NCBI GenBank assembly: GCA_000004985.1 | Contig: GG738900.1 | Source: Naegleria gruberi | Taxonomy: Eukaryota | Reading direction: 5' to 3' (one strand) | DNA length: 64,000 nt | Shown: positions 1,000 through 48,353 of the stretch, piece after piece | Layout: each line of letters starts with the position of its first letter | Position numbering within the stretch: the stretch's first letter is position 1 | The notes under the pieces: generated by a model | Seen by the model: only the letters and a program-made list of their open reading frames with translations | Database searches by the model: none | Told to the model about the DNA's origin: nothing | Program-made: the position numbers and the translations under genes

Positions 1000-1461
1000 T
1001 TATTGAAGATAATTGGTGATCTTCATCTTCAAGAACATGATCAAAGTGTTATAAGCAATAATGATGAGGAAAATTCCCAATCCGAGGAAAATGTATCGGG
1101 AGCGAGTTGTTGTTGATGGATCAGCTGCCCAATTCAATGAAATAAATCCAAGTCCTCCTATTGTGAATAAGAAACCAGCACTGAATCCTTCAATCACGTA
1201 TTGAGCGTTTAATCTATATTCAAGAACTGCTACTGGTCTAACTCTTCCGTCAGCATCTCTTCTACTACCAATAGATGGAGGTTCATTGATCATATCGTAA
1301 ACAATACCGGAACAAATAACAAAGTATGAAGCAAGAAGAAGAACAAAGACGAGCATCTTTGGAAGACCCTTTTCAAAGATACTTGGTAATTTAAGTTTGA
1401 TATCAGGTGCTCTGAGAGCAGAAGTGTAGATGGCTTTAAAGATTGGGAAGAGTGGATCCAT
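1000..1461 (-). CDS. oligosaccharyltransferase complex subunit OSTC/DC2 homolog
   Basis: Single-exon 153-aa ORF with a true ATG and three predicted TM helices. It aligns well with human OSTC, for example PPSIGS..DGRVRPVAVLEYRLNAQYVIEGFSAGFLFTIGGLGFI against [43 protein letters not shown]. Confidence 0.85.
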   Translation of the reverse strand: MDPLFPIFKAIYTSALRAPDIKLKLPSIFEKGLPKMLVFVLLLASYFVICSGIVYDMINEPPSIGSRRDADGRVRPVAVLEYRLNAQYVIEGFSAGFLFTIGGLGFISLNWAADPSTTTRSRYIFLGLGIFLIIIAYNTLIMFLKMKITNYLQ

Positions 1462-2065
1462 TTTTTAAAAATTTTATTCTTTTTTAATAAATATTAATTT
1501 ATTATTCAAGTGGTGATGATCTACAATCGCAAGTATGGTAATTAAAATTGTTTTTATTGAGAAGTAAATCATTATATAACAGCAGTATATCTGGATGATA
1601 TGATGCTTTAACACTTATACAACTTCACAAGGCTTGTTTTATTAAGCCATTATTAAAAAAGTTGTAAATATGTTATCATTGTTTTTCCAAAGAGTTCGCA
1701 AGGGATGAAGGTGTCCAAAAATTATTCATGGGTATTTTCCTATGTCTATTGAATAATTCAATGTTAATGTAATAATCCGATAGAAATAGTTCAATGATGA
1801 TTTCGAGAAATAATTGACGAATTCCGATAATTTATATCGATAACGTAGTGGAACATTAATGCATTAAAGCATGACAAAGATTAATTGATGAATATTTATT
1901 GTTTTTGGCTTTTTTTCATGTTATTCACCAGCTAAAATTTCTTATTGTAAAATCCAGGATAGACTAGTCATCCCAAAAATTTTAAAAATTTTGTTGAAAA
2001 AAAAGTCGAAAAAAGTAAGTTCTCTCACGCCTATCACAGGTCGCTAAACAACATCAACTAAAGAC

Positions 2066-2440
2066 ATGTCTTCTGCAATTGTTAAGAAGGAGCAAACCGC
2101 CCCAGAACAATCCACCAAGGAACCAATCCACAGAATCAGAATCACCTTGACCGCCAAGAACGTCAAGGCCCTCGAAAAGGTCTGTGCTGATTTCGTTAGA
2201 GAAGCCAAGAACAAGAAGGTCAAGAGAGTCAAGGGTCCAGTCAGAATGCCAACTAAGATTTTGAAGATCACCACCAGAAAGTCTCCTTGCGGTGAAGGTA
2301 CTAACACTTGGGACAAGTTCGAAATGAGCGTCCACAAGAGAGTTATTGATTTGCACGCTCCAGCTTCAACTGTTAAGGACATTACTTCCATCTCCATGGA
2401 ACCAAACGTTGAAATTGAAATTACCGTCTGTGACTTGTAA
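2066..2440 (+). CDS. rps20: 40S ribosomal protein S20 (uS10)
   Basis: Single-exon 124-aa ORF with a true ATG. Highly conserved uS10 motifs are present: [25 protein letters not shown]...[37 protein letters not shown]. Confidence 0.9.
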
Positions 2441-2768
2441 ACGTCTACAAATAAAAAAATAAAATTATATAAAAATACAATTAAATTATTAATTTGTTAA
2501 TCCATCAAATCATTAGTATAATCATGGGTGTCAAAAAGATTGTATGATGGATCTGGTGTTGAAGATGTTTGTCTATTTTCTTGGTGTTCCACTCATTGCT
2601 AGCAAAACTTTCTCAAGAGAGGCTTGGCGCGTACAGATAAAAATAACAAAAAAAATAGCCTTCCTCTCCCGCCACATTCATCTTGCCTCTTCTTCATCTC
2701 CTAATAGTGATCGAAATTAATACAAATAATTATTTGGACAAATTTAATACATTGATGGAGAAGTTATA

Positions 2769-5342
2769 ATGGCAAATCAAGTATATGAGGATAACGAAGA
2801 ACATGAGGATAATACATCATACGATGATGAATATTCACCGATCGAGGATATTTCGGAGGGTGCTCTAGACTATAAAGATCCAATGAGAAGAGTTAAAATT
2901 TATCATTTGAGTGATCTTGGAGAGTGGATTGACAAGGGAACAGGACATATTCACTGTGAAACTCAGGTATGTTTGAAAAACATGAATTTCCAACAACAAC
3001 AAAACAAAAAGGATAACGAAACTAACCTTGTATTAGTCTCAGAGTCTTCCGATGAACGTTTATTATCAACACCAATCTCAACAGATGATATATATGCTTT
3101 ACAAAATGGTTAGTATTACCTTGTTTTTTTACAATAATTTTTGTTAATAATTTCTGTAGCAACTTTAATCGTTTGGAATGACCCAGTTCAAAAAATTGAA
3201 ATGGCTCTTAGTTTCCAACATTCTGATGGATGCATTATGATATGGTAAGTCTTTTAACATCTTGTTATTGTTAAACAATTATTTAAAGGAATGAAATCAG
3301 GAAAGTTCAAGGAAAACCTCCTGATGGAAAGGAGGTTGTTGCAAGAAACAATCAAGAAGAGGAAAGTGTAGATGATGAAATTGTTGGTATGGGACTAAAT
3401 GGAAGTTCTCTAAGTATTGGATCAACAGGTAGTAGTTTAGGAAAAATTGAGTTACCTGAACCTAGTATTAGTAATCTAACAGCTATACTATCTATAATTA
3501 CCGATCATAGATTCAGATTACCAAGTTATATCAAGTCTGATTACATTTTAAAATTGTTCCAGGTTTTTGATGATTGTGAGGATTTGGATAGTGTTGAAAA
3601 TTGTCGGATTTTATTCAAAATATTCTCTGGAATTATAGCAATTGATGATCTTGAAATATTGGAGATACTATTTTCTAAAAACAACATCATGAAGTTAATT
3701 GGTGTTTTGGAATATGATCCAGATTTACCAACAAAAAAAGCCAATCATAGAAACTTTTTAAATAATCGTGTAATTTTCAAAGAAGTTATTCCATTCAATA
3801 ATCATAATGTTTTGGATAAGATTCATCAAACATTTAAAATACAGTATATAAAGGAGACGATTTTGGCATCAATTATTGATGACCAAACATTTAGCACATT
3901 AAGCACAATAATATTCAAGAACAACACAATGATAATCAATTCCATCAAGGAAGATCAGGAATTCTTGAAGAAGGTATTTTCAACCCTATTAGCAGATGAT
4001 ACTCCAAAAGATAAACAAAGGGACCTTTCCAAGTTTCTTTCTGAATTCTTTGCATTGCTAAAACATCAAAATATTAACAATAAGATAGATACCTACAAGT
4101 AAGTTGACAGTTTTTAACTTGTTTTATTTAATAATATTTCAGGAGATTAACTCTAGATCATCAATTATTGGATGTTGCAGAGAAACATTTACAAAATGAA
4201 AATGTTTCAATCAGACATATTTAGTAAGTACTTTATAATATTTAATTCTAATGCATTATTATTCTAGTTCCGAAATACTTTTATCTATAGCACAGACGAT
4301 TCATCTCTCTTTCCTAGGAGAAATCAAACAAAGACATTTAAGAAATGATTTCAACTTGCTAAAGGTAATAATCAAAACTATTGTCAGCGAACCAGAGCTG
4401 GGCATTCAAGACAATTTGACAGAAGTCATAAAGTTATTATTGGATCCAGAGACCCTCCTTACCAACTCTGACGTATTCATTGACCAATTTTATAAGCATC
4501 ATGTTGAATTGCTTGCATCTCCAATTTTAAATCCACAGACTACAATTAATCATTTCACAAAACCTTCCATCAAAGTCAGTTGCATTAATCATGCATTGGA
4601 CTTACTTTCCTTTACAGTAATTCATCACAAACACAGAAGTAAGAACTTTTTAATAGCGAATGACATTATATCTAAGGCCGTTCATTTATTGGATGTTTAT
4701 AGGGAGAAGGATTTGATACTTGGCGTAATTAGATTCTTCAAGTCTATTATTTCGAGGGGTGACTTGCTACTTTGTACAAATATTTTGACCAACAACCTTT
4801 TTGATCCAATCATGGAAGTTTGGAGAAGAAATGGCTCAGTTTACAATCTCATTAATTCTGCAATTATAGATTTATTTGAAGCATTAAGAAATACCACAAC
4901 TGGTAGACTTAAGCAACATTGTGTCGAACGATTCAGACAAGATTTTGAAGCTGTTAATTATGTTGAAACATTTGCTCAACTTATTGAGGAATGTGATCAA
5001 CAAGAAAATTCTGAAAACAATAATAATGTATCTCAACAAGAAAGTGATGATGCCTACTTTAATGACAATGAAGAAATGCACAAGTCTATGATTGCACAAG
5101 ATTCACCAGAGCGAGCTTCTGTTGAAGAAGAGGATGATTTTTTCTTTACTCTTTCGAAACATAAGGGTAGCAATCAAGATGATGACGATGATGAATCTGA
5201 TATTTACTCTAATAGAGAGAAGAATGATATGGAGACCTCATCACCTCATTCTCCACACAAATTGCAAATTAGTTTGAAAACCAATACCACTTCACCAACC
5301 AAAGGAGAGGTGGAACCAAACCCTAAGAAGGTTAAATTTTAG
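2769..5342 (+). CDS. smkA: SMEK / protein phosphatase 4 regulatory subunit 3 (5 exons)
   Basis: The N-terminal EVH1-like region matches PP4R3: RRVKIYHLSDLGEWIDKGTGH, then TLIVWNDPVQKIEMALSFQHSDGCIMIW spliced in phase onto NEIRKVQGKPP. Approximate exons are 2769-3108, 3160-3244, 3289-4098, 4143-4223 and 4268-5342. All junctions are GT..AG and keep the reading frame. Confidence 0.8.
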
Positions 5343-5465
5343 TAATTTATAATAATAAAGAATTTAATTGAAACTCTCTAGGTATCCCAACAACATCCAA
5401 ACAAAACACAAACAGATATATACCACTAACAGTCCATTAAGGATAAATATTCATAATGAATGTAT

Positions 5466-5537
5466 TCCCGTGTAGTCCAATGGCTAGGATACCTGGCTTT
5501 CACCCAGGAGGTCCGGGTTCAATTCCCGGCATGGGAG
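5466..5537 (+). tRNA. tRNA-Glu (anticodon UUC)
   Basis: 72-nt cloverleaf TCCCGTGTAGTCCAATGGCTAGGATACCTGGCTTTCACCCAGGAGGTCCGGGTTCAATTCCCGGCATGGGAG with anticodon loop CTTTCAC. It is followed by a T-run typical of a Pol III terminator. Confidence 0.85.
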
Positions 5538-5580
5538 AATACTTTTTAATGTTGATAAAACCAATTTTATTTGGTATTGA

Positions 5581-6621
5581 TTAAGGAATTTGGAGAATAA
5601 TTTTTCCAACAGTTCTATTGGATTCACTCATTTTTTGAGCTTGTGAGGCTTGATCCAAACTTAGAATATGAATTGGAATGTCTTTCCATAAACCACTTTC
5701 ACTCAACCACTTTAAGATAACTGCCAATTGATCACCATCCCTTTCAGCATACAAATTTTTGGCTCTTTCACTTCCAAAAACCTTTCCAGAAATTCCTTGA
5801 GGTGTGTGAACAATTGTAACAAATTGTGATTCTTCATCTTGTTTGAGCAATTCAATGGAATAGTATTCTTGATAGGATCCAACAAAATCCAACACTATAT
5901 CAAAGGTACCTTTCAAAGATTCCAATTCATGAGTGAGATATTCCTTTCCCTTAGTGTAATCTAACACTTGATCAGCTCCCAACTTTCTAACAAAGTCTGC
6001 ATTCTTTGCTGATGAAATGGTAACAATCTTTTCAGCATTGAAATAATTCTTGGCAAGTAAAATACCTGACATTCCAACACCACCACTTCCACCAATGATT
6101 AGAACTTGTTTTCCTCTCAAGGAGTCTTTTTGTCCACTCTTACTTGATGGATGTCTGAGGAAACATTGAAAAGCAGTCAAGAAAGTTACTGGACACGAGG
6201 CAGCAACTTGATGACTAATTGATTCTGGATTAAGAGCTGCTTGAGATTCAGAGCAGACAACATATTGACTGTATGTTCCTCTGATGTGTGTCATGTTACA
6301 ACCACAAACTGAATCACCAATCTTGAATTTGGTTACTTTGGAACCAGTGGCAACTACAATTCCACTAACTATTCGAAGGTAAGAATGAAAAATATTAAAC
6401 TTACAATCAACTCCAAGAATCGTTGGATATGAATTAATATAAAACCCATATTGTCTTACTTTACAATCTAATGGATTAACTCCAGCATATTGATTTCTAA
6501 CAAGAATGTCATCTTCATTCAATTGTGGTAAATCAAATTTATGGTCAATTACAATGTCATCAGCACTGACATTGGCAGATTTAATAATTGCAGCAGTTTG
6601 AAAGGTTGGAAGACTTGACAT
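5581..6621 (-). CDS. zinc-type alcohol dehydrogenase-like / quinone oxidoreductase (MDR superfamily)
   Basis: NAD(P)-binding motif LIIGGSGGVGMSGILLAK and an N-terminal GroES-like region. A probable 36-nt in-frame intron (gtaagtttaatatttttcattcttaccttcgaatag) lies at about 6372-6407 on the minus strand; removing it restores the conserved ILGVD-VSGIVVATGSKV motif. Confidence 0.8.
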   Translation of the reverse strand: MSSLPTFQTAAIIKSANVSADDIVIDHKFDLPQLNEDDILVRNQYAGVNPLDCKVRQYGFYINSYPTILGVDCKFNIFHSYLRIVSGIVVATGSKVTKFKIGDSVCGCNMTHIRGTYSQYVVCSESQAALNPESISHQVAASCPVTFLTAFQCFLRHPSSKSGQKDSLRGKQVLIIGGSGGVGMSGILLAKNYFNAEKIVTISSAKNADFVRKLGADQVLDYTKGKEYLTHELESLKGTFDIVLDFVGSYQEYYSIELLKQDEESQFVTIVHTPQGISGKVFGSERAKNLYAERDGDQLAVILKWLSESGLWKDIPIHILSLDQASQAQKMSESNRTVGKIILQIP

Positions 6622-7009
6622 TTTAGAGATGTGTATTCTTTTTTTATGATTTGAATTTTGAATTGCTTATCCAGTTAAAAAAGTTGACTTGTTTTTATAG
6701 TGTTTTGAAAAGTGTGCGCAGCAGAAATAATGTATTCTATCGCGGTAATTAAGCAACCAATCAGAAATGGAGCGCTGATTTTGGGATATTTTGACTTTCG
6801 CAAGGTTAATTTTTGATTTTCTTGTCAAGGTTCACCATCACCAGCAAATAGCTGTATTAGTAGCTGTAGTTCTTTTACTTGCTTTTGTAAAGTTCATACT
6901 TTACAAAAAAAATGCTCAAACGGAATGAAGGAGGCCGAGTTGTGATTTTCTTGGATTTTTCTTTGGAATCAAATTTGCTTTTGCAAAAATTCAAAGACAA
7001 ACTACATCA

Positions 7010-8698
7010 TTGAAGGAATATTGTAAGAAACGTGATGAAATATTAAACAAAAGACCAGAATTTATTCCATTGGAGTTTTATCGGGATTGTCAAGTGTTGG
7101 TTAAATATCCACATTTATTGGAGAATTTGCTGATTACAACGGATAGGGAATTTATTTTGTATTTTGTTAGATCGAGGGATGATCACATTCATTCAGTTTG
7201 TAGAGCTATTTCAGATACTTTGAAATGTGATGAATTATTTATTAGACAAGCCATTCAAGCTAATTATCAAATGTTTAAAGTTCTTCTTGAAAAACGTAAT
7301 CAAGACTACAACAGAAAAAGAACAAGCAAGATACGTAGAGGTCGATTCAAAGACGAGGGAAGTGATGACTCTGGAGATGAGGATAATATATCAATTGACT
7401 GGGAGTATTTCATTAATTTGAATCCAAAAGTTCTAAGATTTGTCAAAAATAGATGGAAAGAGTTGGATAGAGAAGTAGTTTTACAAGCTTTGCGAAAAGA
7501 TATTATAGCAATTTATTCATTGCAAGCTCTTGACAGAGAAATGGCATTGTTGGTAGTTGAAACCAATCCATTGGCTTTGAAATATGAACATGGAGTTTGG
7601 CAGAATGATAAAGAAATTGTACTGAAAGCAATATCACAAAATAAGAACCTACTTGTGTATGCATGTGATTCGATCATTGAAGAAGTGTTAAGAAACAGAG
7701 AACTCATTGAATATTCTCAGGAGGATGTCATTAATTTAGTATTGAATGGTGTGAAGGAAAAGCCATCTTTATTCAATTACCTTCCCGAACATATGAAAAC
7801 AAATCATGAATTTGTTATCAAATTGGTAGAATTGGACACAAGAATATCCGAGTTCATTCCAGAATCTTTAAAACAAAACAGAGAATTTCTAATGGAACTG
7901 GTCAAATATGATAGAAATGCATTTTACAATTGTAAAGATATGGATCTGAGGGGGAGTAGACAATTTTTATTGAACGCCCTATCCACTTACAGGTTCTCAC
8001 TCTCCAGTGCTCCATCTCATCTCAAAGATGATAAGGAATTTGTAATGGAATGTTTAACTGCATATCCTGCAGACTTGGATGAAGCTTCATCTCGTTTGAG
8101 AGATGATGAACAAGTGGTAGAATTGGTTTTAAAAGAATTTAATAACGCATCAAATAGATTGAAAGATGATAAGGACTTTGTAATGAAACACATTGAAGAA
8201 TTTCCTCAAATGTATCAGTCATTGAGTCAGAGATTGAAAAGCGATAAGGAAATAATTCTAAAATGTGCATCTGGAGGTGGAGTTATTTCAAATGGTTATT
8301 TCTTTCACGACGATGACTTTGTATTAGAATTGGTGGAAAGAAATGCTCATATTGTTGAAACACTGGGAAAGATAACGCCAGAGTTTGCTAAGAAATGTAT
8401 TGAGCGAAATGGCTTTTGCTACCATTTATTGAAACAACACTCTATGGTAACAGAATCTGACGAATTGGATCAATTAGCAGCTCTTTCTCGTGGATATTTA
8501 GCTGATAAACATACTGAGGATATTAGACCAACATATGGATTTCACAAAATCAAAACTCGCACAAGCTATGAGGATAGAGAAATTGTGGATTCATGGATTA
8601 AGAAGAGATTGGAGAAGCAATATGATGGGTTATATATTTCACTCAGCTCGCCAATATTTGTAAAGGGAAAGTTTGTGAATACCCACATTAAGGGATGA
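7010..8698 (+). CDS. DUF4116 repeat-containing protein (5' end uncertain; an upstream exon is probably missing)
   Basis: Repeated ~35-aa units of the form LKDDKEFVMECLTAYPADL.. / LRDDEQVVELVLKEF.. / LKDDKDFVMKHIEEFP.. / LKSDKEIILKCAS. The frame is open upstream to 6929 with no in-frame ATG. Confidence 0.55.
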   Translation: MKEYCKKRDEILNKRPEFIPLEFYRDCQVLVKYPHLLENLLITTDREFILYFVRSRDDHIHSVCRAISDTLKCDELFIRQAIQANYQMFKVLLEKRNQDYNRKRTSKIRRGRFKDEGSDDSGDEDNISIDWEYFINLNPKVLRFVKNRWKELDREVVLQALRKDIIAIYSLQALDREMALLVVETNPLALKYEHGVWQNDKEIVLKAISQNKNLLVYACDSIIEEVLRNRELIEYSQEDVINLVLNGVKEKPSLFNYLPEHMKTNHEFVIKLVELDTRISEFIPESLKQNREFLMELVKYDRNAFYNCKDMDLRGSRQFLLNALSTYRFSLSSAPSHLKDDKEFVMECLTAYPADLDEASSRLRDDEQVVELVLKEFNNASNRLKDDKDFVMKHIEEFPQMYQSLSQRLKSDKEIILKCASGGGVISNGYFFHDDDFVLELVERNAHIVETLGKITPEFAKKCIERNGFCYHLLKQHSMVTESDELDQLAALSRGYLADKHTEDIRPTYGFHKIKTRTSYEDREIVDSWIKKRLEKQYDGLYISLSSPIFVKGKFVNTHIKG

Positions 8699-8933
8699 TT
8701 ACCCATTATGTGAAACCTTACTAATTTGAATTTGTCTTTATTTTGGATAAAGTATTGAAACTAGGAAGCTCAGCAAACTTCAACACTCTTCTTTTTATAA
8801 TTTTTAAAATGTATGCAATAATGTAGCAAGTACATGATATTTATGAAATTATAATTCCAATTTTCATTATTATTAGTAATTATTCCCATTTCTTTATTTG
8901 TCCATTAAGGATAAATTTTCAAAATAAATGTAT

Positions 8934-9005
8934 TCCCGTGTAGTCCAATGGCTAGGATACCTGGCTTTCACCCAGGAGGTCCGGGTTCAATTCCCGGCAT
9001 GGGAG
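8934..9005 (+). tRNA. tRNA-Glu (UUC), second identical copy
   Basis: Identical 72-nt sequence to the copy at 5466-5537. About 35 nt of upstream flank is also shared. Confidence 0.85.
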
Positions 9006-9091
9006 AATACTTTTTTAATTATGGACTTTTAATATTGTTAAAAATTAATTTTATGTTACCACATGAGGTATTGAATAATTTAGAATTTGCA

Positions 9092-9301
9092 TTAAGGAAT
9101 GTGGAGAATGATCTTTCCAACAGTTCTATTGGATTCACTCATTTTTTGAGCTTGTGAGGCTTGATCCAAACTTAGAATGTGAATTGGGATGTCTTTCCAT
9201 AAACCACTTTCACTCAACCACTTTAAGATAATTGCCAATTGATCACCATCCCTTTCAGCATACAAATTTTTGGCTCTTTCACTTCCAAACAATTTCAACA
9301 A
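9092..9301 (-). pseudogene. duplicated 3' fragment of the oxidoreductase gene at 5581-6621
   Basis: About 185 nt at 9115-9297 is near-identical to 5606-5790. The ORF carries only the last ~69 aa of the oxidoreductase (ERAKNLYAERDGDQLA..ILKWLSESGLWKDIPIHILSLDQASQAQKMSESNRTVGKIIL) and no upstream exons. It sits downstream of the duplicated tRNA-Glu. Confidence 0.7.
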
Positions 9302-9365
9302 AAATCTATGAGCCTTTTCTTGTCACATTAATAAAAATCTGCCATGTTGTTCAATTAACCACAAT

Positions 9366-10187
9366 TTAATAACACTCATCGTCAGGATAATCCACAATTC
9401 CATACATGAGAATATTGGAATAATCACAATTTATAACAACAGAATCCATTACTTCCTTTTCCATTTGCTTTTTCGTTTCCTCTGCTTGTTTACGATACAA
9501 TTTAGCTTTTTCTTTACCCACCTCAAAGGTTGCTACGCACATTGATTCATAATCCATGTCAGATACATGGTTACGCTCAACAAGCTTTGAGTATAGATGC
9601 TTATCAGTCCTATAGATGTATTCCACAATTTTGCTTCTACATGGTTTTGCATGTTTCGAAATATCTGTGTGGGTATCGGTTGAGATCAGATTCATGTCGT
9701 TAGATATTGGGCCAACAATTGAAAGAACTACAAACGAGGATAAATCATTGTAAAAAGCCATGTCCATAGTAAGAATCACATTCTTGTTTGTTTTCAATTC
9801 ATAGGTTGTTCTTGTAACGCTAAAACAAAATGAATACCCTTTCGAATGGATAAGAAATTCTAAATTTTTGCACATGTTGGACTTTTGGCACTCTTTCCTC
9901 TTGTAATTCAAGGTTTGGTTACACTTTGTGGTATGTTTGAGCGAAATTTGAGGCTCCTTAGAATAGGTTGTTTTTTCCTTCAGCCAGTAATTTTGTTCCA
10001 TTAAAACATATTCTGATAAATCATAAAAAGTTTCATTGTAGGATGTTTTTGATTTGAATGTAAACAGAGGAAGAAGACTTTTTTCTAACTGCTCCTTGCC
10101 CATAATAAAGTTGAATTTTGTAATGATTGCACTGTCGTGGGCAACATGATCTAATAAACAATCTTGATATACGAATCTTGTGTTCAA
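9366..10187 (-). CDS. hypothetical protein; the true start is probably internal (MGKEQ...) or spliced
   Basis: 273-codon open frame starting at a TTG in the track, with no recognisable family. The upstream end abuts the 5S rRNA gene on the same strand. Confidence 0.3.
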   Translation of the reverse strand: MNTRFVYQDCLLDHVAHDSAIITKFNFIMGKEQLEKSLLPLFTFKSKTSYNETFYDLSEYVLMEQNYWLKEKTTYSKEPQISLKHTTKCNQTLNYKRKECQKSNMCKNLEFLIHSKGYSFCFSVTRTTYELKTNKNVILTMDMAFYNDLSSFVVLSIVGPISNDMNLISTDTHTDISKHAKPCRSKIVEYIYRTDKHLYSKLVERNHVSDMDYESMCVATFEVGKEKAKLYRKQAEETKKQMEKEVMDSVVINCDYSNILMYGIVDYPDDECY

Positions 10188-10220
10188 TGTATGATTGTTT
10201 AAAAGTTATTAAGGTAAAAA

Positions 10221-10340
10221 GACTACAGCACCACAGGTTCCCAAGTTGTCTCCAACCTCAGTACTGATGTGGCTCGACGATGCTTACCTTCTCAAATCGG
10301 ACGGGATGAGATGCATTCATCGTGATATGGCCGTAGCCAT
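10221..10340 (-). rRNA. 5S ribosomal RNA gene
   Basis: The minus-strand sequence is (AT)GGCTACGGCCATATCACGATGAATGCATCTCATCCCGTCCGATTTGAGAAGGTAAGCATCGTCGAGCCACATCAGTACTGAGGTTGGAGACAACTTGGGAACCTGTGGTGCTGTAGTC followed by TTTTT. It matches the eukaryotic 5S consensus, including box A, the loop-C region and the ...GGTGCTGTAG 3' end. Confidence 0.9.
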
Positions 10341-10424
10341 TCATTTATTTAAGTTCTGAGTCATAAATCTTTAAGCAACAGTTAGGATTGTAAGGAATAT
10401 ATTTTAATCAAGATTTTGGTTTGT

Positions 10425-10520
10425 TCTTCACTATGAACATGCTTGACTCACAACGTTGATCACAGCTAAGCCATTGTGAAAATAATTGAGTCAAGCATGT
10501 TCATAGTGATCAACGTTGTG
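10425..10520. repeat. compound inverted repeat: cactatgaacatgcttgactca + caacgttgatcac ... tgagtcaagcatgttcatagtg + atcaacgttgtg
   Basis: A perfect 22-bp arm and a 13-14-bp arm each recur as reverse complements about 60 bp away, in A-B...A'-B' order. Confidence 0.6.
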
Positions 10521-10741
10521 CAGGATGTAATAGTTAAAGTTCATACTTTGCTCAAAATGGGAAGTTACTACCCTTAATAAGACCAATTTAAAAGAAAACA
10601 TTCATGTTCAATTTAGGAACTTTTAGAATTTTGACTTATTTTATTATCATCCACAAAGAAACCATTGTGCCAGCTCTTGTTGGTGCTAAATATGCTTGAT
10701 TTGGGTTATGTAAATTTCAAAGTGCAGAACATTTGAAAAAA

Positions 10742-13700
10742 ATGCTGAAAAACAGCATAACAGTAGATTTGAGCGGTAAGGACGGAGAAGATGGTCATCA
10801 AGGCAAGAGGTAAGAGTACATACCTCAATTTTTTTGATGTTAATATGTTGCCGAATTAGTGGACGTAATGGTGAAGTGGGAAAGGTAATGTTTCTAATCT
10901 CCCTTAATCATCATAAAATCACTGTTGTAAAATAGTCAGGGAAAAGTGGACAAATATCTGCCTTAAATAATGGAAATGGAAGTCATGGAGAACCAGGAGG
11001 ACCGTAAGTATATATTGCTGGAGTGAAATTAGCCATGTGTTAATAGAGGTGGAGATGGAGAGAATGGTGGAAAGTAAGTTCTAGCTGTTATTGAGTACTT
11101 GACCTTATTTAATATTCCTTCTCAACAACAGTGGAAAAAAGGGGCAACACGCAACAGCTGGTGGAAATATTTAAGTAAAAATTGAGGGATCCAATCACAA
11201 GTTAATCACTTTGAGTGGAAGTATCAATGATTCTGTGTGTTTGAATGATGGTGCTGGACAAGTTTTGGTGTTTCTGGCGAATGGTGGAAATGGTGGAAAG
11301 TGAGTATCAGTGTAGCTTTGATTTGAAGTGCTTACAATTATAGAGGTGGACGTGGAGGACCAGGTGGTAAGTTGCTGAATAGCAAACACGACTGAGAATG
11401 TAATTCATTCAGGAATGGGGGGAGTCGGCGGAAAAGGAGGAACTGGAGCAAGAGGTGGTAATGGTAGCTCTGGAGGTAATGGTATGAATGGTCAAGATGG
11501 TGGCAATGGAGGAAAGTAAGTATTGAATGATTGAGACAATTTTGAAACTAATAATTATTTCAGTGGTGGCGTGTAAGGAGAAATACAAGTTTAGTTAGTT
11601 GATTGAAATTTAGTGCTGGAAAAGGAGGAAATGGTGGAGAGTAAGTTTTAATAATTGGTTGGAAATTCATATGTGCGTTTAACAAGTGGAGGGGAAGGAT
11701 CCAAGTAGGTTTTTCAATTATTACAACTATTTTAATGTGGAATAGTGGTGGAAATGGTGGAAATGGAGGAAGTATTCTTATTGAAACAAATAATGCTTCC
11801 TTGTTGAAGTTTGTCAAAGCAGAAAGTCAACCAGGTAAAGGAGGAATGGATGGAAAAGGTGGCTCTGCAGGAAGTGCAGGTAAAGGAGGAGAGAAAGGAC
11901 CTGGAGGACCTGGTGGTAGAGGTGGTGCAGGAGGAGCTGCAATGGGAAGAGGAATAATCAATACAAGATCTGGATCCAATGGAAGGAATGGATCAGATGG
12001 AAAATCTGGACAAAAAGGTCAAGAAGGAAGGAAGGGAAATCCAGGACACACTGGACAAGATGGTACACCAGGAAATTTAACCATTAGAGTCTATGATCCT
12101 CTTACTAATCAACTTGTGGAGGAAGGTCATTCAATTTATAATTTGGTGGTAACAACATTCGAATTGTGTGGCTATGAAAATGATGGAATTTTTGAACCAG
12201 ATGAAAATGTCTTTATTACCAACGTTGGTGTTAAGAATCAAGGAGGATTGACATTACCATCAGGTTCAGTTCTCTCATTTCCAAGCACTCAAACATTTAT
12301 TTCAAACGGTGAATGTTATGTTTTGGAGAAGAATTTGGCACCAGGCGAATTCTTTTCAATTCCTTTCCAATTTTATGGTCGAGTTGTTGGAAGGAAACAA
12401 AAACAATTTGGCCCTTTCAAGTCAACAATTAGCATTCAATCAAGTGCTTGTCTGTTAACTTCTCCATTTAGTGAAGGTTTTGTTAAGAAGGAATATCCAG
12501 TTCAGTATCCAATAGTATTGGAAAGTGTGAAAGTTCCTAAAAGTTTGGGAAGAAATGAAAAAGGAACAGTTACAATCACCGTAAAGAATCAATCTCTTAT
12601 CAATTATGGCTCTTCATTGGGTGATGGATACAGAATTAAGTTTTGTTTAACTCTGGATTCAACGTATATCATTCTAACAGAAACAAGCGCAACTAATATA
12701 TTTGAAGAGGAAATTCCCTTCATCCAAGCAGGAATGTCATACTCTAGAACGTTTAACATTGAAACAACTATCAATGCCCAATTCTATGAAACCATTCCAA
12801 TTCAAACAAATTTATTTTTGAGAGGACATCCTATTGAGGAATCATTGAACTCCATTCGTATTCAACCAACATACATTCCAACTAATCTCGATTCTCCAAA
12901 TCCTTTCGATGTGCTCTTCTTCTCAGATAAGCACATTAATAGGCAGGAATTTTCAAATTACATGTCCCTGCTTGGTAGAATAGGATTGAACGTGAATGTA
13001 TGGGATATTGAGAGATACGGTGGACTATCTTATAATAATAAGGGTAAGAGACATACAAAATCATGGATTGATGGTGGTTATGAAGGTAAAATGATAATAA
13101 TGCCTCTTATGGAACAAGGCTCTGAAAAACAAATGGCTGTCTCAGATATTTTCCAACATTTCAGGGGCAAAAATTGGCAAAATGATTCATCAAAACCAAA
13201 CAATGGATCTATCGTTTTTATCGGTAACCCTTCTGATTCATTCAAAAGTCAACTCTTTGGCGAATGCTCAGCCCAACAAATCCCAGAATCTGAACTAAGA
13301 GAAATGTTTCTGCTTTCTGAACCGAATGAAAGCTCAATGCTTAAGAAAGCAACAGAGTTTATTAAATCCCTCAATAAGACACATCCATCAAGGGTTTATA
13401 GAACTGAAAATGTGTTATTCAATCCTCAAAAAGATGGCTCATTATCAAAAACTTTATTAGGATCAGCTGATTATAAGGAATTACCCTTAAGCACTGCTGA
13501 TGCTTTATATTTCATTCCAACAAAGAGTGGAAACTCTTCTGGATTCATGAACGGAGGTATTACACTTCAAATTGAAAGCAAATCAAATATTGGAAAATTG
13601 CTTAACACTATTCTATATTCACTTCCTGTTGAGAAAAAATTGGAATTGTTAAGGAAACCAACCGAATGGCTTTCCAAAGTTCAAATTAAGGATGAAAATG

Positions 13701-13960
13701 GTGATTTACTTAATTATGTAACTTGTATTATCTTTGCTCTAAGCTTTAATCTGTTTTTGGAAATAATTTACAACGATGAAAATGGAAGATTTTCAACGGG
13801 TATTGAAGCAGATTTTGAAGCACATTTTGATGAATATAAGAATCATCCTCAATCCAAACAAATTGTTGAAACTCTATATTTGGTATTAAAGAAACTTGGC
13901 AGTGAATTAAAATGGAGAGGAACATCGGTACCTAGCATTAAGGAAAGGAAAAACCTATGA
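10742..13960 (+). CDS. collagen-like / Gly-rich secreted protein. About 9 mini-exons encode the GGxGG-rich N-terminus, followed by a large 3' exon that begins near 11746.
   Basis: ATG at 10742. Serial short exons at about 10742-10809, 10860-10884, 10936-11003, 11047-11073, 11216-11299, 11344-11366, 11413-11515, 11614-11640, 11687-11704 and 11746-13960 have GTAAGT-type donors and stay in phase. They encode ...GKDGEDGHQGKRSGRNGEVGKSGKSG...GGNGGNGG. The large exon has a true G-X-Y run (GSDGKSGQKGQEGRKGNPGHTGQDGTPG) followed by a ~600-aa globular region. Confidence 0.65.
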
Positions 13961-15060: not shown

Positions 15061-18000
15061 ATGAATCACAAAGGTTTTGCATTGCTTCTTGTGTTAACAT
15101 GTCTGTTGTTTATTACCATTCATCCAATAATGACTAGTGAACAAATTATTCGAAACCTTGCCGGTCAAGGAATATGTGATGGTCATTTATCAACAAATGC
15201 ACCAGTCAATCCCAGTGATTGTGCCTTTTTGGATGAAGAAATGTTAATTGCAGATGCCACTAATCATAGAATTCGTAAAGTTTTCACAAATGGAACAATT
15301 GTAACCATAGCTGGAAATGGATTTGCTGGTTACAATGGAGATGGTTTAGATGCAACAAGTGCTCAATTGAACAATCCAGTTGGCATTTATGTTGATACCA
15401 ATAGTAGAGAAGTTTACATTGCTGATTCTAATAATCATCGAATTCGTAAAATATTACAGAATGGAAAAATTACAACAATTGCTGGAACAGGAATTGCTGG
15501 CTACAATGGAGATGACAAAAGTGCAGACAGTGCCCAATTGAACACCCCAAGTGGAATTGTTATTGATCCAAATAATGGAGAAATTTTCATTTCAGATTCT
15601 AAAAATCACAGAATTCGTAAAATTTTACAAAATGGTAAAATTACAACAATTGCTGGAACTGGAGAAGCTGGTTACAATGGAGATGGAATTGAGGCAAAGT
15701 TTGCAAAATTGTATCTACCAAACGGAATTGATTTGTATGAGAAAGAGTTGTTTATTGCTGATCAAAATAATCATAGAATTCGTAAAGTTTCGCTTGATAC
15801 TGGACTAATTTCAACTATTGCTGGAAATGGAAATTCAGGTTACAATGGAGATAACATTCTGGCAACAAACTGTAAATTGAGTTTACCTGCAGGAGTTAGA
15901 TACGATTCGAAAAGAAGAGAAGTTTACATTGCTGATTCCAACAACCAAAGAATTCGTAAAATATTAGAAAGTGGAATAATTGTAACAATTGCTGGAACAG
16001 GAGAAGCTGGATTTGATAATATTCTCAATGCTACCCAATCAAAGGTTAATCATCCTAATAGTGTTACTTTGAACGAATTAGGGGAAGTTTTCATTTCAGA
16101 TTCACAAAATTATCGAGTACGAAAGATTACAACAGAAAGTGGAATAATTACAACAATTGTAGGAAATGGATTTGAAAAGTATTGCACAGATTTAGCTAGT
16201 AACACACCATTGTTTTATCCTCGTGGTATAATTTCGAATGAAAATGGAGAATTTTTCTATGCCGATTCTAGCAACCATTGTATTCGAAAAATTCTGACAA
16301 ATGGTACAATTCTTACAATTGCTGGAACAGGTACTAAGGGTTACAATGGAGATGGAATTGAAGCAACAAGTGCTCAATTAAATACTCCTCACGATGTTGC
16401 ATTAAACTTGGCAACTGGCGAGATTTACATTGCAGATACGGAAAATAATAGAATAAGAAAAATTTTGACAAATGGTACAATTACAACAATTGCAGGAACT
16501 GGAGATTATGGATACAATGGAGATGGAATCATGGCTGTAGATGCATGGTTGAATGAACCGAGTGGTGTTGAAATTGATTCCACTAGCGGTGAAGTTTTCT
16601 TTTCTGATACTGAAAATTTCAGAATTCGAAGAGTTTCGAATAGTGGAATAATTACAACAATTGCAGGAACTGGAAAATCAAAATTTAATGGAGATGGTAT
16701 GGCAACAGACACGAATCTTGCTACTCCAACTGAAATTCAATACGTTCCAAGTACTACTGAAATTTATTTTGCTGATTCTGGAAATAATAGAATTAGAAAA
16801 TTTACTATAAATGGAATGATGACAACTATTGCTGGAACAAGCACAAGTGGATATAATGGTGATAATATGCCTGCAACACGTGCTTGGTTGAATTTTCCAG
16901 TTGGTGTAACATACGATCCAAAAACCAATCAAGTTTATATTGCCGATTTATCTAATCACAGAATTAGAAAAATTCTGACAAATGGTACAATTACAACCAT
17001 TGCTGGAACAGGAAAAGGAGGTTATAATGGTAATAACTTGACAGCCTTATCCACTCAAGTGAATGGACCTCATGGAATGATACTACAACCGAATGGTGAT
17101 GTAATCTTTTCAGATAGCACCAATAATGTCATTAGAATTATCAGATCTGATCAAATTTATTGTAATGGAACATTGTCAAGTGATTTGAATGTTTGTAATG
17201 GTCGTGGTTGGTGCATGGAGAGTGGAAAATGCTCTTGTCAAGACGGATGGATTGGTGATTATTGTTCAGAGCCAACATGTGAAAATGATTGTTATGGACA
17301 TGGAAGATGTGTTTCGAATAATACATGTGAATGTGAATATGGTTGGGATGGAAACTCTCACTGTTCTCAATTTTCATGTGGTGGATTGAATAATTGTAAC
17401 TCGAATGGTTTATGTGTTTCGAATAATACTTGCAGTTGCCAATCAGGATGGGCTGGAACTGATTGTTCTCAATTTACTTGTTCTGGCGCTAGCAATTGTT
17501 CAGATCATGGTTCCTGCATTTCGAATAATACTTGTCATTGCAATTCTGGTTGGAAAGGAAATGCCCAATGTTCCCAATTTACTTGTGAACTCACAAATGA
17601 TTGTTCGAATCATGGCTTGTGTGTTTCGAATAATACTTGTCAATGTAGTTCAGGTTGGAATTTCATTAATTGTTCCATCAAAGAATGTCTCATTTCAATT
17701 GTTTCAGGTTCAAGAGAATTGATATGTGGAAATGATAATTCTTCTGGTCAACTGAAAACATTTAGCAGAATAACGACTCCAGTAATTGAAACAACAAGTT
17801 TCGAATTGAATGAAAATCAACATGTAAATGTTGATATTGGATCAAGAATAATGAATTTGGATCTATCTCAAGACAAGTATTTCATAACCTCTTCATGGAC
17901 CAATTCGAATAATTTATTCTTTACCAATGTTTCCAATTTACTAATTCAAAACTCAGGTTCATCACTTATTCAAGCAGAACTTTCAACAAAAATCAAGTAT

Positions 18001-21476: not shown

Positions 21477-21697
21477 GACGGGAAGCCTGCCAGGAATATG
21501 ACGACAATCCCGCTACAGTCTTTGACTGTATGAACAGTGAAGGCAACGAAGACAGAATCTTGTTGGTTCAGGTTTTGTTTGAAGAAATTGTTAAAGTTGA
21601 TCAACCTCATATTTATTGAACATTTGTCATGTTGAAATGCATGATGCAAATTTTGGTTTCTCATATTCTGATCAATTCTAAATTGAAACTTCATTAT
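21477..21697. repeat. copy 1 of a ~230-bp conserved element of unknown nature (other copy at 44032-44270)
   Basis: The first ~70 nt (gacgggaagcctgccaggaatatgacgacaatcccgctacagtctttgactgtatgaacagtgaaggcaa) differs from copy 2 by 2 nt. The remainder is about 75-80% identical, with conserved blocks gttgatcaacct..tatttattgaacatt, tgatgcaaattttggtttc, tctgatcaa and attgaaacttca. Confidence 0.7.
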
Positions 21698-21716
21698 TTA
21701 CAATTTACTGAATTAT

Positions 21717-23780: not shown

Positions 23781-23856
23781 TTTTTTAAATGGCAGTACTC
23801 TATGAATCAACATTGATTTACCTAATAAAAAACCTTTATTTTTGAATTGTCAAAAA

Positions 23857-23976
23857 GACTACAGCACCACAGGTTCCCAAGTTGTCTCCAACCTCAGTAC
23901 TGATGTGGCTCGACGATGCTTAACTTCTCAAATCGGACGGGATGAGGTGCATTCATCGTGATATGGCCGTAGCCAT
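23857..23976 (-). rRNA. 5S ribosomal RNA gene (second copy)
   Basis: It differs at 2 positions from the copy at 10221-10340 and has the same minus orientation and the same T5 terminator. The flanks are unrelated to those of copy 1. Confidence 0.9.
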
Positions 23977-24102
23977 TCATTTTCTTAATTTGTGATATAT
24001 AAAACATCTTCTTAAAATCTTAATGTTGAATAAGTCAATGAATTCTTTGTTCGCACACAGAATAGTAACTTTCAAATTCCGCTAAAAATTAGAACAAAAA
24101 AA

Positions 24103-44031: not shown

Positions 44032-44270
44032 GACGGGAAGCCTGCCAGGAATATGGCGACAATCCCGCTACAGTCTTTGACTGTATGAACAGTGAAGGCA
44101 AGAGTTCTGGACGAATCTTGTTGTGTTTAAATAACAGGTTGTTGAGGAAATTCAATAGGTTGATCAACCTTGTATTTATTGAACATTGATTCGCTGAATT
44201 GCTTGATGCAAATTTTGGTTTCATATTTTCTGATCAAATCTAAACTAAATTGAAACTTCAGCTTATTGGA
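44032..44270. repeat. copy 2 of the ~230-bp conserved element (see 21477-21697)
   Basis: See copy 1. It has the same orientation and the same position relative to its neighbours: about 120 bp downstream of the stop codon of a plus-strand gene. Confidence 0.7.
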
Positions 44271-48146: not shown

Positions 48147-48235
48147 AGGCGACTGAGGGAATTGAACCCTCGACCCTCAGTTATCTCAGCATTACTGCCT
48201 ACAAGACTGATGCACTGCCACTGTGCTAAGCCGCC
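48147..48235 (-). tRNA. intron-containing tRNA. By my cloverleaf reading the anticodon is UGU (Thr); the isotype is uncertain.
   Basis: The minus strand reads GGCGGCTTAGCACAGTGGCAGTGCATCAGTCTTGTA[GGCAGTAATGCTGAGAT]AACTGAGGGTCGAGGGTTCAATTCCCTCAGTCGCCT, followed by TTTTG. The acceptor, D and T arms are good. A ~17-nt intron lies 3' of position 37. The anticodon stem is TCAGT/ACTGA with loop CTTGTAA. Confidence 0.7.
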
Positions 48236-48353
48236 TTACATGCATCAAAAAAATTATAAAAACCTGTGCTAAAGCAACACATGTCAAACTTTCTTCAAAA
48301 ATTTTCCACTTGAAGTTCAATTAGACATTAGACTTGAAAAAAAAGGCTTTACA

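Follow-up and report, generated by a model that had tools for sequence, protein, structure and literature searches.

In the genome paper of Dictyostelium discoideum (Eichinger et al. 2005), identical tRNA genes that neighbour each other in pairs are reportedly read as recent duplications. For the surplus of tDNAs that occur close together in pairs, local DNA duplications have been named as 'prime suspects', and about 924 tDNAs were counted in N. gruberi (Bermudez-Santana et al. 2010, PMC2888827). In yeast, replication forks stall at tRNA genes, at which segmental-duplication breakpoints are also located (Payen et al. 2008, PMC2518615; PMC11790251). The yeast events, attributed to BIR/MMIR, are tandem or interchromosomal and large, from tens of kb upwards (115 kb in one example), and their junctions carry microhomology of 5-10 bp, microsatellites or LTRs (PMC2518615).

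Here, we analysed a window of 64 kb (the whole stretch of DNA under study, to which all coordinates refer) in which a tRNA-Glu(UUC) gene and the tail of an adjacent oxidoreductase gene occur twice. As in the local pairs described previously (PMC2888827), two identical tDNAs with the same anticodon point the same way and are separated by a few kb, but their spacing of 3.47 kb exceeds the 1-kb cluster definition of that study, and the duplicated flanks are still readable here, which makes the copied unit measurable (-34 to +241 around the tRNA-Glu gene). With the yeast duplications (PMC2518615) the locus shares a direct intrachromosomal arrangement, the involvement of a tRNA gene and the lack of a transposon at the junctions, and fork stalling by Pol III transcription would be a plausible trigger; it differs from them in its size of about 350 bp, in its insertion 3.1 kb from the end of the source, and in having no visible microhomology. 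Like truncated duplicated pseudogenes, the second copy contains a 3'-terminal gene piece without promoter, start codon or upstream exons that is about 97% identical to its parent, but this piece hitch-hikes with a presumably selected Pol III gene and lies directly downstream of the stop codon of another gene. Compared with the pairs of D. discoideum, the window belongs to a different eukaryotic supergroup, and the tRNA-targeted retrotransposons of dictyostelids, TRE and DGLT-A, have no counterpart at this locus. The event is of a kind already known, that is, ordinary genome turnover and a usual way in which tRNA gene families grow; its value is modest, as a clean and still-readable case of such growth in a heterolobosean.

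A single contiguous block in direct orientation

Whole-window self-BLASTN returned one match, in which positions 5432-5778 are repeated at 8900-9289 on the same strand as a single contiguous block (E=4e-132); no third copy was found in the 64-kb window. The two copies start 3,468 bp apart in direct orientation, and the copied unit measures about 347 bp. In a repeat search, the block appeared as two pieces, 5432-5547/8900-9015 (97%) and 5580-5801/9091-9312 (92%). The left edge at 5432/8900 is sharp, with homology ending at 8899/8900, while the right edge lies at 5778-5784/9289-9295, and at both edges the identity falls from at least 27 of 30 positions to background (8.4±2.5 of 30) within about 20 nt. 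No microhomology was visible at either junction, where source and target have different bases next to the edges, and no target-site duplication was detected (the flanks share at best a direct match of 6 nt, P=0.61).

The block comprises a 34-nt upstream flank, the 72-nt tRNA-Glu(UUC) gene, a spacer, and the last ~65 codons and the stop codon of the oxidoreductase gene on the minus strand. The similarity runs past the functional elements into the spacer and the gene fragment, and the first-pass annotation of the shared segment as a local segmental duplication is borne out. That annotation had further proposed an internal deletion or replacement between the tRNA gene and the fragment, with about 110 unrelated bases after the second tRNA gene. 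Neither holds: the intervening DNA in copy 2 is an 86-nt spacer (9006-9091) homologous, with small indels, to the 43-nt spacer that separates the tRNA end from the oxidoreductase stop codon in copy 1 (5538-5580; previously given as 44 bp), and the block is contiguous. Relative to copy 1, the copy-2 spacer has three insertions, of 15, 11 and 17 nt, and is mismatched at 8 positions, and it would have doubled by small indels after the duplication. On the minus strand of the copy-1 spacer, AATAAA and ATTAAA are located 9 and 30 nt after the oxidoreductase stop codon, respectively, and AATAAA is lost in copy 2. The coding part of the repeat begins at the stop codon itself (5581/9092) in a register of +3511, which corrects an earlier start at 5606/9115 and a register of +3509.

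Copy 2 occupies the convergent intergenic region between a DUF4116-repeat protein gene (7010-8698, plus strand; Pfam PF13475, E=4.8e-55, 8 repeats) and ORF273 (9366-10187, minus strand; no Pfam match), its right neighbour. The DUF4116 gene thus lies between the two copies, as had been noted, and is not duplicated, no second copy of it being found by tblastn. ORF and Pfam searches between 5.3 and 10.3 kb revealed no RT, integrase or transposase ORF, no RT-related Pfam match and no repeat besides the block itself, in agreement with the earlier remark that no transposable element is visible. No LTR, RT, IN or APE element sequence was found beside the tRNA gene, so the locus does not fall under tRNA-targeted retrotransposons of the TRE/DGLT-A or Ty3 type. 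The ORFs of this interval are PP4R3, the MDR oxidoreductase, DUF4116 and the orphan ORF273.

The closest homologues of the encoded proteins are Naegleria proteins. The oxidoreductase is 54%, 48% and 43% identical to those of Naegleria gruberi, N. lovaniensis and N. fowleri, respectively; with 44% identity between N. lovaniensis and N. gruberi, the organism is by this gene closer to N. gruberi than N. lovaniensis is. ORF273 belongs to a Naegleria-lineage orphan family with 29 homologues, the best of which in N. gruberi (EFC35975.1) is 79-81% identical. The window should be annotated as Naegleria-lineage and not as dictyostelid, and since it is heterolobosean, the argument from dictyostelid retrotransposons that use tRNA genes as landmarks is inapplicable. 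A relationship between ORF273 and the oxidoreductase was considered and rejected (BLASTP E=6.7). In the relatives examined, synteny is broken exactly at the PP4R3 stop codon and the downstream region is rearranged in every one; scans of metagenomes for an outgroup locus gave no match.

Two tRNA-Glu genes and an orphan oxidoreductase tail

ARAGORN and Rfam agreed on a tRNA-Glu(UUC) gene at 5466-5537 and another at 8934-9005, both on the plus strand and identical at 72/72 positions, as reported in the first pass; each scored 67 bits against RF00005, the gathering score of which is 29. The cloverleaf is kept in both copies, and both contain TAGTCCAATGG and GGTTCAATTCC, which we take to be the A box and the B box, respectively, by comparison with the consensus boxes. 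A terminator T run starts 5 nt past each gene, T5 at 5543-5547 in copy 1 and T6 in copy 2. The upstream flanks (5432-5465 and 8900-8933, plus strand) are identical at 31 of 34 positions; the shared flank reported earlier is therefore present, but with an exact length of 34 nt instead of about 35 nt and with 3 mismatches. The copy-1 flank carries a TATA-like ATAAATA block and an ATGAATG motif that abuts the tRNA gene, and motifs of this 34-nt block also precede tRNA-Thr and 5S genes; the flank is likely a Pol III upstream promoter region. Judged by these sequence signals, the duplicated segment has an upstream region, A and B boxes inside the gene and a T-run terminator, all the predicted parts of a complete Pol III unit, and the copy-2 tRNA-Glu(UUC) gene is apparently functional and presumably transcribed by Pol III.

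The 17 substitutions between the copies are distributed by compartment as 3/34 in the upstream flank (8.8%), 0/72 in the tRNA gene (0%), 8/43 in the spacer (18.6%) and 6/198 in the coding part (3%), and the 43 nt of indels are all in the spacer. Were the tRNA gene to diverge at the mean non-tRNA rate of 6.2%, all 72 nt would stay unchanged with a probability of 0.01; with K~0.1 this probability drops to about 5e-4 (0.9^72). Given that the tRNA gene shows 0/72 changes against 6-14% in the flanks, and differs from the rest of the block in a Fisher test (P=0.017), the comparison suggests that both tRNA-Glu genes have been kept intact by selection or constraint, or homogenised by gene conversion. 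Both genes should be retained in the annotation.

The parent of the copied tail is an intact MDR/zinc-ADH-like (quinone-oxidoreductase-like) gene (5581-6621, minus strand) with Pfam ADH_N (1.1e-17) and ADH_zinc_N/_2 (ADH_zinc_N_2, 4.1e-13) domains. Once a 36-nt intron (6369-6404) is spliced out, it encodes 334 aa, and alignment with the Naegleria orthologues confirms both the intron model and the full length. Its last ~198 nt (5581-5778) are inside the duplicated block. The orphan fragment in copy 2 (9092-9295, minus strand) matches aa 268-334 (tblastn, 95.5%, E=7e-38), corresponding to the last ~65-67 codons plus the stop codon, and ends about 590 nt short of the only intron. Covering this part alone of the 334 aa, it does not include the GroES-like ADH_N and the Rossmann NAD(P)-binding domain, and it lacks an ATG, 5' exons and its own promoter. 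The ORF at 9092-9301 that had been listed as a gene fragment without 5' exons does exist and contains no ATG, but it needs a bacterial TTG start, and only its last ~65-67 codons are homologous; it should be annotated as a pseudogene fragment and not as a gene.

The stop codon of ORF273 lies 71-77 nt upstream of the fragment on the same strand, and the C-terminus of ORF273 is ancestral, ending in ...YPDDECY like the N. gruberi homologue. Because the fragment has no start codon or 5' exons and the adjacent ORF273 retains its ancestral stop codon, the copied tail is probably a non-coding relic, possibly transcribed only within the 3' UTR of ORF273. Codon comparison of the coding part gave 4 synonymous and 2 non-synonymous (conservative) changes, and the resulting pN/pS of 0.12 is a hint of constraint that is not significant (P 0.06-0.08, or ~0.3 with transition bias, by a binomial estimate).

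Origin of the second copy

We are highly confident that some kind of local, DNA-mediated duplication really took place here. Copy 1 alone continues into the rest of the oxidoreductase gene, from which we infer the direction copy 1 to copy 2, and for the mechanism we favour a one-step, replication- or repair-associated templated origin, to which we give an even chance. In such an event, the contiguous ~347-bp segment (5432-5778) would have been copied intrachromosomally and in direct orientation to a site 3.47 kb downstream, between the DUF4116 gene and ORF273, when a stalled or broken fork switched template. Alternatively, a double-strand break may have been repaired by synthesis-dependent copying from a nearby template and rejoined with little or no microhomology. 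Either way, a second tRNA-Glu(UUC) gene would have been gained and since maintained intact, with the oxidoreductase tail co-copied as a by-product. A single insertion-type event would suffice, because no other oxidoreductase or DUF4116 relic was found to the right of copy 2 (tblastn, E up to 10; blastn, word size 7). The missing microhomology counts against template switching, although a divergence of ~10% may since have obliterated its signature.

The same present-day sequence is predicted by a two-step route, akin to the first-pass proposal, in which a 3,468-bp unit of tRNA-Glu, oxidoreductase and DUF4116 (5432-8899) was tandemly duplicated. The second oxidoreductase gene then lost its 5' three-quarters, together with the whole second DUF4116 gene, to a deletion of at least 3.1 kb, which left the tRNA gene and the tail. 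We regard this as a possible but rather less probable course. Local duplicates mostly arise by tandem duplication followed by loss of the redundant genes, the direct orientation and the start-to-start spacing match such a unit, and the surviving part is the selected one, with no change in the tRNA gene; but the route takes two events where one is enough, its deletion must reach the end of the second unit or further, since neither DUF4116 nor the 5' part of the oxidoreductase gene has left a relic, and no positive evidence sets it apart from one-step copying. It is unlikely that the polarity was reversed, with the full oxidoreductase and tRNA genes first at the copy-2 site, at least 1.2 kb of them duplicated to the copy-1 site, and the original then truncated. 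The only polarising evidence in the window is that copy 1 runs on into the intact gene, and with the region past PP4R3 rearranged in all relatives examined, the copy-1 site is not demonstrably ancestral. However, this course requires both a duplication and a deletion, no residual similarity between 5790-6700 and 9296-10200 was found by self-BLAST, edge scan, BLASTP or tblastn, and a copy-2 spacer with three insertions and a lost AATAAA is a better fit to a decaying, unconstrained copy than to an original.

An RNA intermediate appears exceedingly improbable. In that case, a 5'-truncated oxidoreductase cDNA, with a 3' UTR running antisense through the tRNA gene to ~5432, would have been inserted by LINE-type retroposition, and the tRNA gene with its promoter would have travelled along in it. 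The block could represent the 3'-terminal 347 nt of a minus-strand transcript, APE+RT (LINE-like) ORFs occur in Naegleria genomes, and the A-rich 11-mer AAATAAAGAAA (mRNA sense, 8889-8899), which is among the top 0.4% of window 11-mers, abuts the copy-2 edge. Yet the longest pure A run at this edge is 3 nt despite only ~10% divergence, the insertion has no target-site duplication, and the AATAAA and ATTAAA signals after the stop codon predict cleavage before the tRNA gene. Moreover, with a genome size of roughly 40 Mb, the prior for a same-strand landing 3.5 kb from the source is ~1e-4, and the fragment does not span the intron, the loss of which would mark a processed retrocopy. That a new functional Pol III gene was seeded through RNA, as tRNA gene birth by mRNA retroposition, is accordingly very doubtful. 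An assembly artefact, with one real copy and a misjoin or a stitched-in second haplotype, also seems most unlikely. Naegleria genomes are heterozygous and polyploid, which would favour it, but 17 substitutions and 43 nt of indels separate the copies, unique gene-bearing flanks with intact ORFs (PP4R3, DUF4116, ORF273) lie all round, and inclusion of a haplotype would repeat the flanks too, none of which is repeated. Collapse or misjoin of identical reads was rejected, as it cannot yield such differences in unique flanks.

It is conceivable, though doubtful, that short templated copies set off by fork stalls at tRNA genes are the general engine of the ~900-copy Naegleria tDNA family, with this locus as a readable case. 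At this locus, a complete Pol III unit with upstream element, internal promoter and terminator appears movable in a ~350-bp patch, and debris of the neighbouring gene goes with it.

Extent and structure of the duplicated block

We found that a sole match in a self-BLAST of the 64-kb window joined 8900-9289 (copy 2) to 5432-5778 (copy 1) with E=4e-132, and that no third copy of this block lay anywhere in the window. Pairwise alignment showed one contiguous colinear unit of four parts, namely a 34-nt upstream flank (31/34 identical between the copies), a tRNA-Glu(UUC) gene, a spacer, and the tail of a minus-strand oxidoreductase gene comprising its last ~65 codons and the stop codon. The tRNA gene was called by ARAGORN and Rfam on the plus strand at 5466-5537 in copy 1 and at 8934-9005 in copy 2. 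The local duplication described in the first-pass annotation was thus borne out by ARAGORN, Rfam, self-BLAST and pairwise alignment, with its coordinates corrected: the coding repeat, placed there from 5606 and 9115, starts at the stop codon (5581/9092, offset 3511), and the "~110 unrelated bases" after the second tRNA are really 86 nt homologous to the copy-1 spacer. These 86 nt correspond to the 43-nt copy-1 spacer enlarged by three insertions (15, 11 and 17 nt) and carrying 8 mismatches, so that the supposed internal replacement comes down to small indels within a homologous spacer. The 15-nt insertion resembles, by eye, a local repeat of ACTTTTTAAT..G, and TRF reported no tandem array in the copy-2 spacer.

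The block is sharply bounded. On each side, the number of identical positions in 30 nt, counted in the repeat register, drops from 27 or more to a background of 8.4±2.5 within ~20 nt, and no homology was detected outside the block edges. The idea that the block is the gene-converted core of an older and larger duplication found no support: just outside the right edge the identity is 13-14/30, and it declines to background within 20 nt. The layout is A-B-A'-C, in which A is 5432-5778, B (5779-8899) is the remainder of the oxidoreductase gene together with a DUF4116-repeat gene (7010-8698; Pfam, E=4.8e-55), A' is 8900-9289, and C begins with ORF273, the right-hand neighbour of copy 2. Rightward of A', sensitive searches recovered nothing derived from B.

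The parent gene (5581-6621, minus strand) encodes an MDR/zinc-ADH-like oxidoreductase (Pfam ADH_N, ADH_zinc_N/_2) of 334 aa after removal of a 36-nt intron at 6369-6404 (GTAAGT..ATAG), and the spliced ILGVDFSGIVV motif aligns with its Naegleria orthologues. The best matches are from N. gruberi (54%), N. lovaniensis (48%) and N. fowleri (43%), after which the score falls from 223 to at most 152 bits; between N. gruberi and N. lovaniensis, the identity of this protein is only 44%. The GC content is ~33%.

Divergence of the copies and fate of the duplicated genes

The two copies differ at 3/34 positions in the upstream flank (8.8%), at 8/43 positions in the spacer (18.6%, plus 43 nt of indels) and at 6/198 positions in the coding part (3.0%), and at 0/72 in the tRNA (0%). 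Four of the six coding differences are synonymous and the other two conservative (V->I and Q->H, both at sites where the orthologues vary too), giving a pS of 0.105 and a pN of 0.013. This pattern of divergence argues against an assembly duplicate of the same reads, and the event is moderately old, with ~0.1 substitutions per neutral site.

Both tRNA-Glu copies lie within short convergent (3'-3') intergenic regions and keep the A box, the B box, the T5/T6 terminators and the 34-nt upstream block. The mature tRNA is the same in both, while the 5' leaders (ATGAATGTA vs ATAAATGTA) and the 3' trailers differ. We found that the tRNA is better conserved than its surroundings (Fisher P=0.017); the probability that all 72 nt stay unchanged is 0.01 if the mean flank rate applies and, by our own calculation, ~5e-4 at K~0.1. 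Because the tRNA is significantly more conserved than the flanks, both genes appear to be maintained by purifying selection or gene conversion. Metagenome pattern scans with the upstream element plus the tRNA 5' end and with the full tRNA returned 0 matches each. A sigma-70 promoter scan has no relevance for a eukaryote, and the "terminators" that it called are the tRNA acceptor stem and the T-run.

The oxidoreductase fragment in copy 2 (~9092-9295, minus strand) lacks the 5' exons and represents no more than the C-terminal fifth of the enzyme, its protein-level end lying at residue 268 of 334, at 9295 (tblastn). It has no ATG, and the listed ORF begins with a bacterial TTG. The pN/pS of 0.12 might suggest selection on the fragment, but with P 0.06-0.08, rising by our estimate to ~0.3 under transition bias since 5/6 changes are transitions, this was not significant. 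ORF273 (9366-10187) lies on the same strand as the fragment and carries no Pfam domain. Its 273 aa come close to the 269 aa that the fragment is missing; however, a diverged N-terminal part of the oxidoreductase was rejected, with BLASTP at E=6.7 and no ADH Pfam domains. An exhaustive phmmer search yielded 29 homologues of ORF273, the named ones being hypothetical proteins of N. gruberi and N. lovaniensis, and the best of them, N. gruberi EFC35975.1, is 79-81% identical across the C-terminal half. ORF273 is a member of a separate, Naegleria-restricted orphan protein family. We also rejected this family as a Pol III-targeting mobile element, as neither a tRNA nor a 5S gene lies close to its N. 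lovaniensis member. A chimeric gene of ORF273 and the fragment was likewise rejected: 22 in-frame GT..AG joins are formally possible, none with a strong donor, and there is no need to invoke such splicing, since ORF273 and its N. gruberi homologue share the same ...YPDDECY end. In our preferred reading, the fragment is a relic in, or just past, the ORF273 3' UTR. At its other end, ORF273 has its first ATG not before codon 29 and in-frame TAATAA stops just upstream, beside a 5S rRNA gene; this 5' end may be truncated or spliced.

Origin of the second copy

On parsimony we slightly favour a one-step route, to which we would give an even chance: a single templated insertion would suffice, in which replication changed template at a fork that had stalled or broken, or in which a break in the DUF4116/ORF273 interval was mended with ~350 bp copied from 3.5 kb away. 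Forks are documented to stall at tRNA genes, which are also found at segmental-duplication breakpoints in yeast (PMC2518615; PMC11790251). No junction microhomology that would support this route was visible. The same structure would result if a 3,468-bp unit was duplicated in tandem and at least 3.1 kb was then deleted, and the window alone cannot tell the two routes apart; the added step places this second route behind on parsimony, and we regard it as a possible but less probable course. That the original stood at the copy-2 site and was truncated later seems unlikely, as further steps would be required and the copy-2 spacer, indel-ridden and with its AATAAA lost, fits poorly with such a polarity. 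Retroposition, in which the 3' end of the oxidoreductase mRNA was copied with the tRNA as an antisense passenger, finds a hint in an A-rich 11-mer at the block edge, but there is no target-site duplication (P=0.61) and no real poly(A) tract, AATAAA stands 9 nt past the stop codon, and a retrocopy would very improbably land 3.5 kb from its source; we consider this origin highly improbable.

Polarising the duplication by outgroup synteny (N. lovaniensis, N. fowleri, and the relatives' loci L003 and L004) gave no resolution. The oxidoreductase loci of N. lovaniensis and N. fowleri carry no tRNA, have different neighbours and are not syntenic. The gene order OST3/6, RPS20, PP4R3 is common to 1000-5342 of the window, in which the last exon of PP4R3 ends at 5342 upstream of copy 1, and to L003 (7044-11170) and L004 (435-3735), with the PP4R3 C-terminus 63% identical between the window and these relatives. 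In all three genomes colinearity stops exactly at the PP4R3 stop codon, which is followed by UCH in L003, by a convergent Beta-CASP gene in L004, and by tRNA-Glu and the oxidoreductase in the window; no tRNA stands right after PP4R3 in L003 or L004. The PP4R3 stop codon looks like a recurrent rearrangement breakpoint.

The dictyostelid context of tRNA-targeted retrotransposons raised in the first-pass annotation is inapplicable, because the oxidoreductase and ORF273 are closest to Naegleria proteins. Judged by the oxidoreductase, the source lies within or beside Naegleria, towards N. gruberi, and the result for ORF273 is in agreement. LINE-like elements do exist in Naegleria genomes, an APE+RT ORF being present in the N. 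lovaniensis locus L001; from 5.3 to 10.3 kb the window is free of such sequence.

For N. gruberi, ~924 tDNAs have been reported, and eukaryotes commonly carry identical tRNA genes of one anticodon in close pairs, a pattern ascribed to local DNA duplication (PMC2888827). This locus is a further instance of that known kind. What sets it apart is only that the flanks can still be read, showing the mobile unit to have been a ~350-bp patch with a whole Pol III unit. Truncated gene relics next to duplicated segments are equally ordinary.

Other Pol III genes and repeats in the window

Two dispersed 5S rRNA genes lie on the minus strand at 10220-10338 and 23856-23974 (Rfam, 98.5 and 105.4 bits) and have in common a 152-bp block of 94% identity that includes ~30 nt of upstream flank. 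The former is separated from tRNA-Glu copy 2 by only ~1.2 kb and from the ORF273 5' end by 32 nt, and ~85 nt upstream of this 5S gene is a 28-nt inverted repeat (10423-10450/10487-10514, 93% complementary, 36-nt loop). An 89-nt tRNA-Thr(UGU) gene, probably with an intron, was found at 48147-48235 (minus strand). All five Pol III genes have the motif ATG[A/C]ATG immediately before their 5' end, at 5456-5464 and 8924-8932 (tRNA-Glu, with the variant ATAAATG at copy 2) and, on the minus strand, at 48237-48245 (tRNA-Thr), 10339-10346 and 23975-23982 (5S); ~20-30 nt upstream, these genes are preceded by an A/T-rich, TATA-like block. The motif shows no window-wide enrichment (10 found vs 9.7 expected), only its position being notable, and might act as a Pol III start-site element in this lineage.

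Internal tandem-like repeats at 15233-17036 are 64-72% identical at offsets in multiples of ~171 bp, presumably a repeat-domain coding region. Moreover, 21477-21698 and 44032-44267 form a dispersed direct repeat of ~240 bp with 80% identity (E=3e-52). A strong GC skew (+0.35) in 10001-12000 lies over the N-terminal region, glycine-rich and collagen-like, of a 741-aa ORF (11735-13960, plus strand), which also has a DUF7932 domain.
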